The notes under the pieces were generated by a model. It was not told the origin of the DNA, searched no databases, and saw only the letters and a program-made list of their open reading frames with translations. The translations under genes and the position numbers were made by a program. From Escherichia phage MS2, in sequence record JQ966307.1: a stretch of DNA of 3,525 nt; one strand, written 5' to 3'. Below are positions 1 to 3,525 of this stretch, in pieces (the first letter of the stretch is position 1; each line of letters begins with the position of its first letter).

Positions 1-131
1 GGGTGGGACCCCTTTCGGGGTCCTGCTCAACTTCCTGTCGAGCTAATGCCATTTTTTTAATGTCTTTAGCGAGACGCTACCATGGCTATCGCTGTAGGTA
101 GCCGGAATTCCATTCCTAGGAGGTTTGACTC
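1..131 (+). other. 5' untranslated leader of an ssRNA phage genome, including the 5' terminal hairpin (about 5..23, GGGACCCC-UUUC-GGGGUCC) starting with GGG
   Basis: Seen in sequence: the window opens GGGTGGGACCCCTTTCGGGGTCC, an 8-bp G/C-rich stem around a UUUC loop. Established knowledge: this is the characteristic 5' end of MS2-group genomes, whose minus strand then ends in the CCCA-complement used by replicase. The leader runs up to the first gene start at 132. Confidence 0.85.
118..123 (+). promoter_or_regulatory. Shine-Dalgarno sequence (AGGAGG) of the maturation gene, 8 nt upstream of the AUG at 132
   Basis: Seen in sequence: AGGAGG at 118..123, then an 8-nt spacer and ATG at 132. Established knowledge: in MS2 this SD is sequestered by long-range pairing with an upstream complementary sequence in the leader. 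A CUUCCU stretch around 30..36 is a plausible partner, but that pairing is inference. Confidence 0.75.
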
Positions 132-1313
132 ATGCGAGCTTTTAGTGTCCTTGATCAGGAGTCCGAGACCTTCGTCCCTAGCGTCCGCGTTTATGCGGAC
201 GGGCAGGTCGAAGATAACTCGTTTTCCCTAAAATACCGCTCGAACTGGACTCCCGGTCGATTTAATTCGACCGGGTCTAGAACGGAACAGTGGCACTATC
301 CGTCCCCTTATTCTAGGGGTGCGCTCAGTGTCACATCGGTAGATCAAGGTGCCTACAAGCGCTCTGGGTCATCGTGGGGTCGCCCGTACGAGGAGAAAGC
401 CGGTTTTGGCTTCTCACTCGACGCACGTTCCTGCTATAGCCTCTTCCCTGTTAGTCAGAATCTGACTTACATCGAAGTGCCGCAGAACGTTGCGAACCGG
501 GCGTCGACCGAAGTCCTGCAGAAGGTCACTCAAGGAAATTTCAACCTTGGTGTGGCCCTAGCAGAGGCCAGGTCGACAGCCTCACAACTCGCGACGCAAA
601 CCATTGCGCTCGTGAAGGCGTACACTGCCGCTCGTCGCGGCAATTGGCGCCAGACGCTCCGCTATCTTGCCCTAAACGAAGATCGGAAGTTCCGATCGAA
701 ACACGTGGCAGGCAGGTGGTTGGAGTTGCAGTTCGGCTGGCTACCGCTCATGAGCGATATCCAGGGCGCATATGAGATGCTTACGAAGGTTCACCTTCAA
801 GAGTTTCTTCCTATGAGGGCCGTACGGCAAGTGGGCACTAACATTAAGTTAGATGGCCGTTTGTCGTATCCAGCTGCAAACTACCAGACTACGTGCAACA
901 TATCACGACGAATCGTGATATGGTTTTACATAAACGATGCACGTTTGGCCTGGTTGTCGTCTCTAGGTATCTTGAACCCACTAGGTATAGTGTGGGAAAA
1001 GGTGCCTTTCTCATTCGTTGTCGACTGGCTCCTTCCTGTTGGGAACATGCTCGAGGGCCTCACAGCCCCCGTAGGATGCTCCTACATGTCTGGAACAGTT
1101 ACTGACGTAATAACGGGTGAGTCCATCATAAGCGTCGACGCTCCCTATGGGTGGACGGTGGATAGACAGGGCACTGCTAAGGCCCAAGTCTCAGCCATGC
1201 ATCGAGGGGTGCAATCCGTATGGCCAACAACTGGCGTATACGTGAAGTCACCTTTCTCGATGGTCCATACCTTAGACGCGTTGGCATTAATCAGGCAACG
1301 GCTCTTAAGATAG
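132..1313 (+). CDS. mat: Maturation (A / assembly) protein, 393 aa; pilus-binding minor virion protein of ssRNA coliphages
   Basis: Seen in sequence: 393-codon ORF, ATG at 132, TAG at 1311..1313, preceded by a strong SD. The translation (MRAFSVLDQESETFVPSVRVYADG...HTLDALALIRQRLLR) matches the MS2 A protein as I recall it in length and along most of its length, with differences mainly near the N-terminus. First gene in the canonical levivirus order. Confidence 0.95.
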   Translation: MRAFSVLDQESETFVPSVRVYADGQVEDNSFSLKYRSNWTPGRFNSTGSRTEQWHYPSPYSRGALSVTSVDQGAYKRSGSSWGRPYEEKAGFGFSLDARSCYSLFPVSQNLTYIEVPQNVANRASTEVLQKVTQGNFNLGVALAEARSTASQLATQTIALVKAYTAARRGNWRQTLRYLALNEDRKFRSKHVAGRWLELQFGWLPLMSDIQGAYEMLTKVHLQEFLPMRAVRQVGTNIKLDGRLSYPAANYQTTCNISRRIVIWFYINDARLAWLSSLGILNPLGIVWEKVPFSFVVDWLLPVGNMLEGLTAPVGCSYMSGTVTDVITGESIISVDAPYGWTVDRQGTAKAQVSAMHRGVQSVWPTTGVYVKSPFSMVHTLDALALIRQRLLR

Positions 1314-1324
1314 AGCCCTCAACC

Positions 1325-1328
1325 GGAG
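1325..1328 (+). promoter_or_regulatory. Coat gene ribosome-binding site (GGAG) 8 nt upstream of the coat AUG
   Basis: Seen in sequence: GGAG at 1325..1328 and ATG at 1337 within AACCGGAGTTCGAAGCATGGCTTCT. Established knowledge: in MS2 the coat initiation region forms a hairpin that sets coat translation efficiency. Confidence 0.7.
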
Positions 1329-1336
1329 TTCGAAGC

Positions 1337-1729
1337 ATGGCTTCTAACTTTACTCAGTTCGTTCTCGTCGACAATGGCGGAACTGGCGACGTGACTGTCG
1401 CTCCAAGCAACTTCGCTAACGGGGTCGCTGAATGGATTAGCTCTAACTCACGTTCTCAGGCTTACAAAGTAACCTGTAGCGTTCGTCAGAGCTCTGCGCA
1501 GAACCGCAAGTACACCATTAAGGTTGAGGTACCAAAAGTGGCTACCCAAACCGTCGGTGGTGTACAGCTTCCTGTAGCCGCATGGCGTTCGTACTTGAAT
1601 ATGGAATTAACTATTCCTATTTTCGCAACGAACGACGATTGCGCGCTTATTGTTAAGGCGATGCAAGGTCTCCTAAAAGATGGAAACCCGATCCCCTCAG
1701 CAATCGCAGCAAACTCCGGAATCTACTAA
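1337..1729 (+). CDS. cp: Major coat (capsid) protein, 130 codons (129-aa mature protein after Met removal); also the translational repressor of the replicase gene
   Basis: Seen in sequence: ATG at 1337, TAA at 1727..1729 immediately followed by an in-frame TAG at 1730..1732 (tandem stops). The translation MASNFTQFVLVDNGGTGDVTVAPSNFANGVAEWISSNSRSQAYKVTCSVRQSSAQNRKYTIKV... matches MS2 coat as I recall it at all but about 3 positions. The supplied ORF (1220..1729) begins at an upstream in-frame ATG, but the genuine start is the internal ATG at 1337 with its own RBS. Confidence 0.97.
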   Translation: MASNFTQFVLVDNGGTGDVTVAPSNFANGVAEWISSNSRSQAYKVTCSVRQSSAQNRKYTIKVEVPKVATQTVGGVQLPVAAWRSYLNMELTIPIFATNDDCALIVKAMQGLLKDGNPIPSAIAANSGIY

Positions 1730-1907
1730 TAGATTCCGTCCATTCCAACATGAGGATTACCCATGTCGAAGACAACAAAGAAGTTCAACTCTTTATGTAT
1801 TGATCTTCCTCGCGATCTTTCTCTCGAAATTTACCAATCAATTGCTTCTGTCGCTACTGGAAGCGGTGATCCGCACAGTAGAGACTTTACAGCAATTGCT
1901 TACCTAA
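1680..1907 (+). CDS. L: Lysis protein L, 75 aa, single-gene lysis protein with a C-terminal transmembrane domain; +1 frame, overlapping the coat 3' end and the replicase 5' end
   Basis: Seen in sequence: ATG at 1680, TAA at 1905..1907, 75 codons, in a different frame from both coat and replicase. The translation METRSPQQSQQTPESTNRFRPFQHEDYPCRRQQRSSTLYVLIFLAIFLSKFTNQLLLSLLEAVIRTVETLQQLLT has a hydrophobic C-terminal half and an LS dipeptide in a Leu-rich stretch. Established knowledge: this matches the position, size and sequence of MS2 L, whose translation is coupled to coat termination. Confidence 0.9.
   Translation: METRSPQQSQQTPESTNRFRPFQHEDYPCRRQQRSSTLYVLIFLAIFLSKFTNQLLLSLLEAVIRTVETLQQLLT
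1748..1766 (+). promoter_or_regulatory. Coat-protein translational operator hairpin (TR) enclosing the replicase start codon; also the capsid packaging signal
   Basis: Seen in sequence: ACATGAGGATTACCCATGT at 1748..1766. It folds as a 5-bp lower stem (ACAUG/CAUGU), a bulged A at 1753, a 2-bp upper stem (GG/CC) and an AUUA loop at 1756..1759, with the replicase AUG at 1763..1765 in the 3' arm. Established knowledge: this is identical to the wild-type MS2 operator as I recall it. Confidence 0.93.
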
Positions 1908-3400
1908 GAGACGAATTGCTAACTAAGCATCCGTCCTTAGGAAATGGTAATGACGAGGCGACCCGCCGGGCTCTAGCTATCGCTAAGCTCCGGGAGGCGA
2001 ATGAGCGGTGCGGCCAGATTAATAGGGAAGGTTTCTTACACGATAAATCCTTATCGTGGGATCCGGATGTTTTACAAACCAGCATCCGTAGCCTTATTGG
2101 CAACCTTCTCTCTGGCTACCGCTCGTCGTTGTTTGGGCAATGCACGTTCTCCAACGGTGCCTCAATGGGGCACAAGTTGCAGGATGCAGCGCCTTACAAG
2201 AAGTTCGCTGAACAAGCAACCGTTACCCCCCGCGCTCTGAGAGCGGCACTACTGGTCCGAGACCAGTGTGTGCCGTGGATCAGACACGCGGTCCGCTACA
2301 ACGAGTCATATGAATTTAGGCTCGTCGTAGGGAACGGAGTGTTTACAGTTCCGAAGAATAATAAAATAGATCGGGCTGCCTGCAAGGAGCCTGATGCGAA
2401 CATGTACCTTCAGAAAGGAGTTGGCGATTTTATACGCCGTCGTCTCCGCTCTATCGGTATCGACCTGAATGATCAAACGATCAATCAGCGTCTTGCAAAA
2501 CTTGGCAGCATCGATGGTTCTTTAGCGACGATTGATTTATCGTCTGCTTCTGATTCCATATCGGACCGCCTCGTTTGGGAATTCCTCCCATCGCAAATGT
2601 ACGCGTACCTGTCGAAAATTCGTTCGTCACGAGGAATCGTTGACGGACGTGTAGTCGACTGGCACCTATTTTCCACAATGGGTAATGGTTTTACCTTTGA
2701 GCTAGAGTCCATGATATTTTGGGCAATAGTCAAGGCAACTATGATCCATTTTGGTAACCTTGGAACAATTGGCATCTATGGGGACGATATCATATGTCCC
2801 ACAGAGATTGCACCTCGTGTGCTAGAGGCTCTCAGCTTCTACGGTTTTAAACCGAATCAGTCGAAGACGTTCATCACGGGTCGCTTTCGCGAGTCCTGTG
2901 GTGCACATTACTTCGGCGGTGCTGATTGCAAACCGATTTATATCAAGAAACCCGTTAACAACCTCTTCGCCGTCTGTCTGTTACTCAACAGGCTACGCGG
3001 GTGGGGTGTTGTGAACGGAGTGTCAGATCCTCGCCTCTTCGAGACTTGGAAATGGCTATCCGAACGTGTTCCTTCGATACTTTTCGGTGGGTCTAACCTT
3101 GATGCAGACTACTACGTGGTTAGTCGTCAGGAAGCTAAAAAGCGTTACGAGAGTCACCCATCTTATGGGCGCACCCTCTCTCACTTTCATAGCACTCCTC
3201 ATCGGCTTTACCGCGTGCCCGTATCTAAACGTGAATTTTCTCCACGTGAAGAATCCGGTCGCCTCATCACTTGGTACCATAATGGTGGTCAAGTTATTGA
3301 CACCACTACGACCCCAAGGGTTCGCCTTGTGCGAACGTCGGAATGGCTAACAGTGGTGCCACTCTTCCCTCAGGAAGATGGCAACTGCGAGCTCTCCTAG
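1763..3400 (+). CDS. rep: RNA-dependent RNA polymerase (replicase beta subunit), 545 aa
   Basis: Seen in sequence: 545-codon ORF, ATG at 1763 inside the operator hairpin, TAG at 3398..3400. RdRp motif A (IDLSSASDSISD, about 2531..2566) and the catalytic motif C YGDD (2777..2788) are present, with STMGNGFTFELES between them (motif B-like). The N-terminus MSKTTKKFNSLCIDLPRDLSLEIYQSIASVATGSGDPHS matches the MS2 replicase as I recall it. The C-terminal roughly 100 aa look more diverged. Confidence 0.97.
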   Translation: MSKTTKKFNSLCIDLPRDLSLEIYQSIASVATGSGDPHSRDFTAIAYLRDELLTKHPSLGNGNDEATRRALAIAKLREANERCGQINREGFLHDKSLSWDPDVLQTSIRSLIGNLLSGYRSSLFGQCTFSNGASMGHKLQDAAPYKKFAEQATVTPRALRAALLVRDQCVPWIRHAVRYNESYEFRLVVGNGVFTVPKNNKIDRAACKEPDANMYLQKGVGDFIRRRLRSIGIDLNDQTINQRLAKLGSIDGSLATIDLSSASDSISDRLVWEFLPSQMYAYLSKIRSSRGIVDGRVVDWHLFSTMGNGFTFELESMIFWAIVKATMIHFGNLGTIGIYGDDIICPTEIAPRVLEALSFYGFKPNQSKTFITGRFRESCGAHYFGGADCKPIYIKKPVNNLFAVCLLLNRLRGWGVVNGVSDPRLFETWKWLSERVPSILFGGSNLDADYYVVSRQEAKKRYESHPSYGRTLSHFHSTPHRLYRVPVSKREFSPREESGRLITWYHNGGQVIDTTTTPRVRLVRTSEWLTVVPLFPQEDGNCELS

Positions 3401-3525
3401 TCAGCACGGCTAGGGACCCCCGTAATCGGGGTGGGTGCCGCGAAAGCGGCTATTCATCGTAACAACGATGGATAGGAGTAATCTCCTAATTTGGTGACTA
3501 ACTTTGCTTGGCTAGTCACCACCCA
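3401..3525 (+). other. 3' untranslated region (125 nt) with a series of stem-loops, ending in a 3' terminal hairpin and single-stranded CCCA
   Basis: Seen in sequence, successive hairpins: about 3417..3433 (CCCCG-UAAU-CGGGG core); 3437..3450 (GCCGC-GAAA-GCGGC, a GNRA tetraloop); 3455..3470 (CAUCGU-AACA-ACGAUG); 3473..3488 (UAGGAG-UAAU-CUCCUA); and the terminal hairpin 3493..3520 (GGUGACUA ... UAGUCACC, 8 bp) with a UGCUU-containing loop, followed by ACCCA. Established knowledge: MS2-group genomes end ...CACCACCCA with a terminal hairpin whose UGCUU loop forms a long-distance pseudoknot with the replicase coding region. Confidence 0.8.

Follow-up and report, generated by a model that had tools for sequence, protein, structure and literature searches.

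The sequence record JQ966307, analysed here in full (the window, 3525 nt), is the plus-strand complete genome of the F-specific RNA coliphage DL52 ('genogroup I-JS') and has already been published. Isolate DL52 was described together with its sister isolate DL54 by Friedman, Snellgrove and Genthner (2012, Viruses 4:1548; PMC3499819), who gave its length as 3525 nt and its similarity to DL54 as 96.73% and noted a shortened 3' untranslated region (UTR) and a ACCACCCA end; its status as a recombinant is likewise already in print (PMC3499819). The open reading frame (ORF) layout and the ACCACCCA end of the window agree with the published description and, as sequence, this MS2-group genome adds nothing new. 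What is added here is the second parental lineage, a crossover located to 48 nt within the replicase gene, two corrections to the original description, and a warning that the recombinant junction has yet to be confirmed independently. DL52 and DL54 are a textbook claim of natural recombination in single-stranded RNA (ssRNA) phages, and naming the second parent and fixing the crossover to 48 nt make that claim testable.

The window carries four genes (Table 1). Their ORFs match four levivirus Pfam families, the three large ones each matching its own family at E < 1e-60, and a six-frame ORF list places the A, coat, L, and replicase genes at positions identical to those given by the initial annotation, which had read the window as a complete MS2-like ssRNA phage genome and a known system. 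Every cis element named there was found: the hairpins at both termini (GGG at the 5' end, CCCA after the 3' one), the operator, and the two consecutive coat stops. Nothing flanks the replicon, as had been proposed, since the published full length of DL52 is also 3525 nt, and no additional or unknown system was seen in the ORF, Pfam, Rfam, and BLAST results. Nucleotide searches against a collection of 50,697 phage records returned MS2-group matches only, in line with expectation; the best match is JQ966308 (MS2 isolate DL54), 96.8% identical over 128-3525, and all other MS2 alignments in megablast end near 3117-3123. The window shows the Fiersviridae/Emesvirus trait of a genome of ~3.5 kb with the order maturation, coat, replicase on one strand, and its placement as a complete genome of the Emesvirus zinderi type (formerly Levivirus genogroup I), with no extra system, is supported. 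The initial annotation had also stated that the genes overlap exactly as in MS2, which is correct for the gene layout, but the sequence is MS2-like only in the 5' two thirds. It guessed correctly that the genome is of interest for the ways in which it departs from MS2, although its mosaic nature went unnoticed.

Table 1. Features of the DL52 genome and metagenomic contigs of the second parental lineage
Feature	Position or accession	Strand	Details
5'-terminal GGG hairpin	1..28	+	within 5' UTR (1-131); fold -23.2 kcal/mol, z -4.6
DL16-like MS2 segment	1..2347	+	99.9% to EF108464 over 1-2390
Maturation (A) gene	132..1313	+	393 aa, ATG start; PF03863 Phage_mat-A, 3.6e-202
Coat gene	1337..1729	+	130 aa; PF01819 Levi_coat, 1e-67
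Lysis (L) gene	1680..1907	+	75 aa, +1 relative to coat/replicase frame; PF11125 Phage_MS2_lysis, 1.3e-38
Operator hairpin (predicted coat-protein binding site)	1748..1766	+	encloses replicase AUG; Rfam, 19-mer, and fold
Replicase (RNA-dependent RNA polymerase (RdRp) beta subunit), chimeric	1763..3400	+	545 aa; PF03431 RNA_replicase_B, 7.9e-199
Crossover interval	2348..2395	+	48 nt, replicase codons 196-211; fixed-site switch, conserved in both parental lineages
'JS'/L007-like segment (replicase catalytic core, C-terminus, 3' UTR)	2396..3525	+	95.8% to L007 (2397-3525)
3' UTR	3401..3525	+	125 nt, ends CCCA; fold -55.4 kcal/mol, z -5.1
3' UTR hairpins, about five	3418-3431, 3437-3450, 3452-3473, 3474-3487, 3492-3521	+	folding
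L006	SRR7550489		metagenomic contig, 3295 nt
L007	ENA ERZ781410		metagenomic contig, 3548 nt
L008	ERR3201760		metagenomic contig, 3462 nt
L009	ERZ1744908		metagenomic contig, 1325 nt

The genes and cis elements of the 5' two thirds are those of an MS2 strain close to DL16. Positions 1-127 equal MS2 and DL16 apart from a TT insertion at 52-53, which places all gene coordinates at +2 relative to MS2; the U-run of the 5' UTR is 7 nt long in the window versus 5 in MS2. The A protein is 100% identical to those of DL16 and DL54 and 96.2% identical to that of MS2. Its start codon, GUG in reference MS2, is AUG in the window, DL16, J20, and FrHenna. The coat protein (100% to DL16, 97.7% to MS2) ends in tandem in-frame stops, TAA at 1727-1729 and TAG at 1730-1732. 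The coat frame is also open upstream as far as an ATG within the A gene, and the resulting 169-aa ORF at 1220-1729 is an artefact of the ORF caller, not an extended coat protein. The L gene overlaps the end of the coat gene and the start of the replicase gene, and its product is 100% identical to L of DL16 and 93.3% identical to that of MS2.

The operator is the same as that of MS2: the 19-mer ACATGAGGATTACCCATGT occurs once in the window, at the operator position, with 0 occurrences expected by chance, and positions 1731-1766 match Rfam RF02359 (MS2 operator) with 59.6 bits, the gathering score being 40. An Rfam scan of the window at E up to 1 returned this curated RNA family alone. Because all cis elements and genes are in place, DL52 would be expected to function as MS2 does. 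By analogy with MS2 biology, attachment to the F pilus would be mediated by the A protein bound to the RNA, the open cistron would be that of the coat, and a coat dimer would bind the operator and stop replicase translation. Translation of L would run in the +1 frame over the junction of coat and replicase, and the replicase, together with host factors, would copy the RNA from its 3' CCCA end.

We mapped the mosaic by a 100-nt sliding comparison on alignments with DL16, MS2, and DL54. Over 1-2390 the window is 99.9% identical to DL16, from which it differs by three substitutions and the TT insertion, 98.9% identical overall to DL54, and 92.3% identical to MS2. Over 2391-3525 identity is 70.2% to DL16, 68.8% to MS2, and 92.5% to DL54, and from 2396 to the 3' end the window has only ~68-70% nucleotide identity to any MS2-like strain. 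Identity to DL54 is 100% over 128-1911, with the first difference at 1912, and 94.9% over 1901-2390.

To find relatives of the 3' part, replicase codons 212-545 were used as the query against a protein collection of 5.8 billion clusters. The search returned DL52, DL54, and one cluster at 97% (P0002), whose four members come from four different metagenome samples. Four metagenomic contigs represent this lineage (L006-L009, Table 1), of which L006-L008 are near-complete levivirus genomes. Over 2397-3525 the window is 95.8% identical to L007, 95.4% to L006, 94.6% to L008, and 87.7% to L009, compared with 92.6% to DL54, while upstream of about 2340 the four contigs are only 55-70% identical to it (about 60% for L007 over everything left of the crossover). 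The two parental lineages are thus distinct, each matching one side of the window: DL16 at 99.9% and ~70%, L007 at ~60% and 95.8%. On these alignments, an L007-like lineage is the apparent source of 2396-3525 and the second parent that went unnamed in 2012. A literature search for the four sample accessions found nothing.

The L007 lineage has its own 5' UTR, and its proteins are A (394 aa), coat (129 aa), an MS2-type L (about 72 aa), and replicase (544 aa). Its coat-replicase spacer is 73 nt long, in contrast to 33 nt in MS2, and its operator hairpin has the loop AAAA where that of MS2 has AUUA. The L gene of L007 begins at an AUG (1728) that overlaps the coat UGA stop (1726-1728) as UGAUG; L thus starts at the coat stop in this lineage, whereas in MS2 it starts 47 nt upstream of it. 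The window and L007 share 54.8% identity in A, 74.6% in coat, and 48% in L. The L007 replicase is 65% identical to that of MS2 and 66% to that of fr; for the A protein, identity to MS2 and fr is 56-57%, and for the coat, identity to MS2 is 74%. The 5' 2370 nt of L007 gave no match above 66-68% among the phage records searched. By these comparisons the lineage forms a third deep branch within the MS2/fr group and seems to be uncatalogued. The species criterion of the International Committee on Taxonomy of Viruses for Leviviricetes is roughly 80% RdRp amino-acid identity, and under it the L007 lineage would be a separate species. The chimeric replicase of the window is 78.2% identical to that of MS2 and 79.4% to that of DL16 overall, at or slightly below this level, and NCBI files under MS2 both DL54 and a replicase protein ('replicase [Escherichia phage MS2]', P0001, from a record of 3525 nt) to which the C-terminal two thirds of the window replicase are 100% identical.

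An MS2-like contig with the exact coat protein of the window, L018 (ENA ERZ781409), bears an accession adjacent to that of L007, and the two probably come from one study. If so, the parental lineages co-occur, as co-infection needs.

With DL16 and L007 taken as parents, an informative-site test locates the switch. The window agrees with DL16 and not with L007 at 950 sites, 934 of which lie before 2341; the remaining 16 comprise one each at 2347 and 2389 and 14 scattered past 2400. It agrees with L007 and not with DL16 at 311 sites, none before 2383. We then kept only sites with fixed differences that separate L006-L008 from four MS2-like strains. At these sites the window is MS2-type up to and including 2347 and JS-type from 2396 onward, and both positions are the same in DL54. 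The crossover is single and sharp, at replicase nt 586-633, and lies in sequence common to both parents: the 48-nt block encodes VPKNNKIDRAACKEPD, identical in the two lineages.

The replicase protein changes affinity at the same place. Residues 1-195 are 99.5% identical to DL16 and 60.8% to L007, whereas residues 212-545 are 97.6% identical to L007 and 67% to MS2 and DL16. The original paper assigned DL16 the role of 'minor parent', with breakpoints spread over replicase nt 84 to 1366, and placed the event downstream of the catalytic site (PMC3499819). In the window, the GDD motif lies at nt 2780-2788 and the catalytic domain (aa 243-373) is 99.2% identical to L007, so the sequence places the crossover upstream of the catalytic core, in contrast to the published downstream position. 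A second correction concerns the replicase C-terminus, whose divergence the original paper tied to a frameshift caused by a 2-nt insertion (PMC3499819). We reject a frameshifted C-terminus: in tblastn, aa 432-540 match the replicase frame of MS2 with 48.6% identity, and other frames give nothing meaningful. Residues 455-545 are 41% identical to MS2, again aligned in the same frame, and the divergent C-terminus is best read as ordinary divergence inherited from the L007 lineage.

The 3' UTR likewise follows the L007 lineage, being 100% identical to L006 and L007 over the overlap. It is 46 nt shorter than that of MS2 (125 versus 171 nt); two hairpin blocks of the MS2 3' UTR, which folds into more hairpins, are missing from the window. 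The stem of the terminal 3' hairpin, GGUAAC/GUUACC in MS2, is GGUGAC/GUCACC in the window, a compensatory change that preserves the hairpin.

Neighbour-joining trees with bootstrapping, built for each genome region, place the 5' part of the window within MS2-like diversity and the 3' part within the diversity of L006-L008. The window groups with DL54 over 128-1911 (93% bootstrap) and with DL16 over 1912-2347 (100%), where DL54 is placed elsewhere; in the JS part it groups with L006-L008 (75-81%), and the grouping with DL54 receives 0%. A history free of recombination in DL52, in which the 3' third diverged fast or DL52 is ancestral and DL16 or L007 is the recombinant, is refuted by the informative-site comparison together with these trees, and we give it practically no weight. 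Identity to DL16 drops from 99.9% to ~70% within 50 nt, and the genomes that match the 3' part at 95-96% are only ~55-60% identical to the window in their 5' parts. The proposal that DL16 is the recombinant was rejected because both of its halves group with other MS2-like strains, at 90-98%. The halves of L006-L008 also agree with one another, and with parental genomes that are consistent across both halves, the window is the odd one out.

We consider it likely that DL52 is a natural recombinant of a DL16-like MS2 and an L007-like phage. Positions 1-2347 (5' UTR, A, coat, L, operator, and replicase codons 1-195) would derive from a DL16-like MS2 strain, and 2396-3525 (the 3' UTR and replicase codons 212-545, which include the entire catalytic core) from a distinct lineage that is Emesvirus-like. 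Most likely, the replicase would have switched templates by homologous copy choice while both phages infected one F+ cell, with the switch falling inside the longest stretch common to both genomes. Such a cut would retain co-adapted modules, namely coat and operator on the MS2 side and polymerase core and 3' UTR on the L007 side. In the 3' part, most codon differences between the window and L007 are synonymous (33, compared with 8 non-synonymous), which fits natural divergence. According to the original authors, the isolates also came from field sampling by different workers and were plaque-purified elsewhere (PMC3499819).

Several observations weigh against a natural origin. The 5' part is near-identical to DL16 and matches DL54 at 100% over 128-1911, while the deposited MS2-like records that come next reach ~94.5% identity; exact copies of the A protein are recorded for DL16 and DL54 alone. 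DL16, DL52, and DL54 were all sequenced in one laboratory, by primer walking on cloned reverse transcription PCR fragments (PMC3499819). We looked for the junction elsewhere with recombinant and parental sequence patterns. The recombinant pattern has 0 matches in IMG/VR, where the parental pattern also has 0, so that neither lineage is present there at the exact patterns. The sole JGI junction match is the parental-type contig L009. All four metagenomic JS-type replicases are joined to an L007-type 5' part, and all nine inspected metagenomic genomes with the exact coat protein of the window are MS2-type through the junction. A junction-spanning protein search returned short fragments only and missed the full-length protein of the query itself, and it is no evidence of absence. 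In the assemblies examined (IMG/VR, JGI, and metagenomic contigs), the junction is without independent sighting outside the original laboratory.

These observations would also be expected of a laboratory or assembly chimera, an explanation we regard as unlikely but worth serious attention. The DL52 stock would then truly be JS-type (L007-like, or an older MS2-like/JS recombinant), and MS2-based walking primers would have amplified a trace DL16-like contaminant, the fragments being merged across the 48-nt block, which is universally conserved. The 99.9% identity of the 5' part to a strain that the same laboratory sequenced, likewise by primer walking on cloned amplicons, fits such an origin, as does the absence of the junction from every public assembly examined. 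At 1621 and 1811, the two substitution sites that precede the crossover block, DL16 alone deviates and the other strains equal the window, which fits clone-level noise, and the join lies in the block best suited to merging unrelated amplicons. Identity between DL54 and the window that is complete over 128-1911 and is followed by differences of 5% and then 7-8% is a further point in its favor. However, three clones were read per fragment from isolates that had been plaque-purified elsewhere, and the original authors weighed contamination and rejected it (PMC3499819). Reads assigned to DL52 and DL54 have also been reported from Japanese wastewater, although these could derive from the JS part alone.

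DL54 bears on both explanations. It shares with the window the switch interval 2348-2395, the short 3' UTR, and 100% identity over 128-1911, but differs from it by 5% over 1912-2390 and by 7-8% over 2396-3525. DL54 itself reads as a three-part mosaic, identical to the window up to 1911, followed by a unique MS2-like stretch and then JS-type sequence. Its middle stretch (L001 1785-2220, equivalent to window 1912-2347) is 5% different from DL16, and an origin from another deposited strain was rejected, the best match being 96%. Such a structure implies extra recombination events or mixed templates. Because this stretch directly abuts JS sequence, DL54 requires at least one junction beyond DL16 contamination, unless the stretch came from the undeposited DL2 or DL13, and this argues against the chimera.

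A wholly natural origin of these structures would take three or more recombination events, and two of these would have struck the same 48 nt. DL52 and DL54 might then be independent natural recombinants, in which two variants of the uncatalogued Emesvirus recombined with MS2-like phages in the same 48-nt block and the DL16-like 5' segment spread afterwards; we put this forward tentatively and lean somewhat against it. If it is true, homologous recombination at a hotspot would be a regular means of module exchange between levivirus species, although recombination in this group is mostly taken to be negligible, and polymerase core and 3' UTR would be swappable between lineages ~65% identical in replicase.

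A real recombinant could instead have been born in the laboratory, while mixed phage stocks were being enriched or propagated together on E. coli HS(pFamp)R. The near-zero 5' divergence from DL16 and the passage of three isolates through the same collection and host would fit this origin, and enrichment cultures may favor co-infection. Against it, recombination in leviviruses is generally regarded as rare, and there is no direct evidence of stock mixing. A JS-type and a DL16-like phage would also have had to meet in the same culture twice, and we judge this route very improbable.

The natural recombination of a DL16-like and an L007-like phage, which we favor, would have consequences beyond this genome. 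If the recombinant is real, coat with operator and polymerase core with 3' UTR are exchangeable levivirus modules. The claim of recombination still rests on what a single laboratory sequenced, and the 5' part is almost the same as in a strain handled alongside. Strain typing is affected as well: DL52-assigned reads dominated the Japanese wastewater study, and reads typed with the DL52 reference may come from the non-recombinant L007 parent lineage.

MS2-type replicase fragments are also present in NCBI under bacterial names. Three of them (P0128, P0131, and P0009) carry the label 'hypothetical protein' in assemblies of Vibrio parahaemolyticus, Salmonella enterica, and E. coli, and they are most likely contamination of bacterial assemblies by phage spike-in or carry-over.

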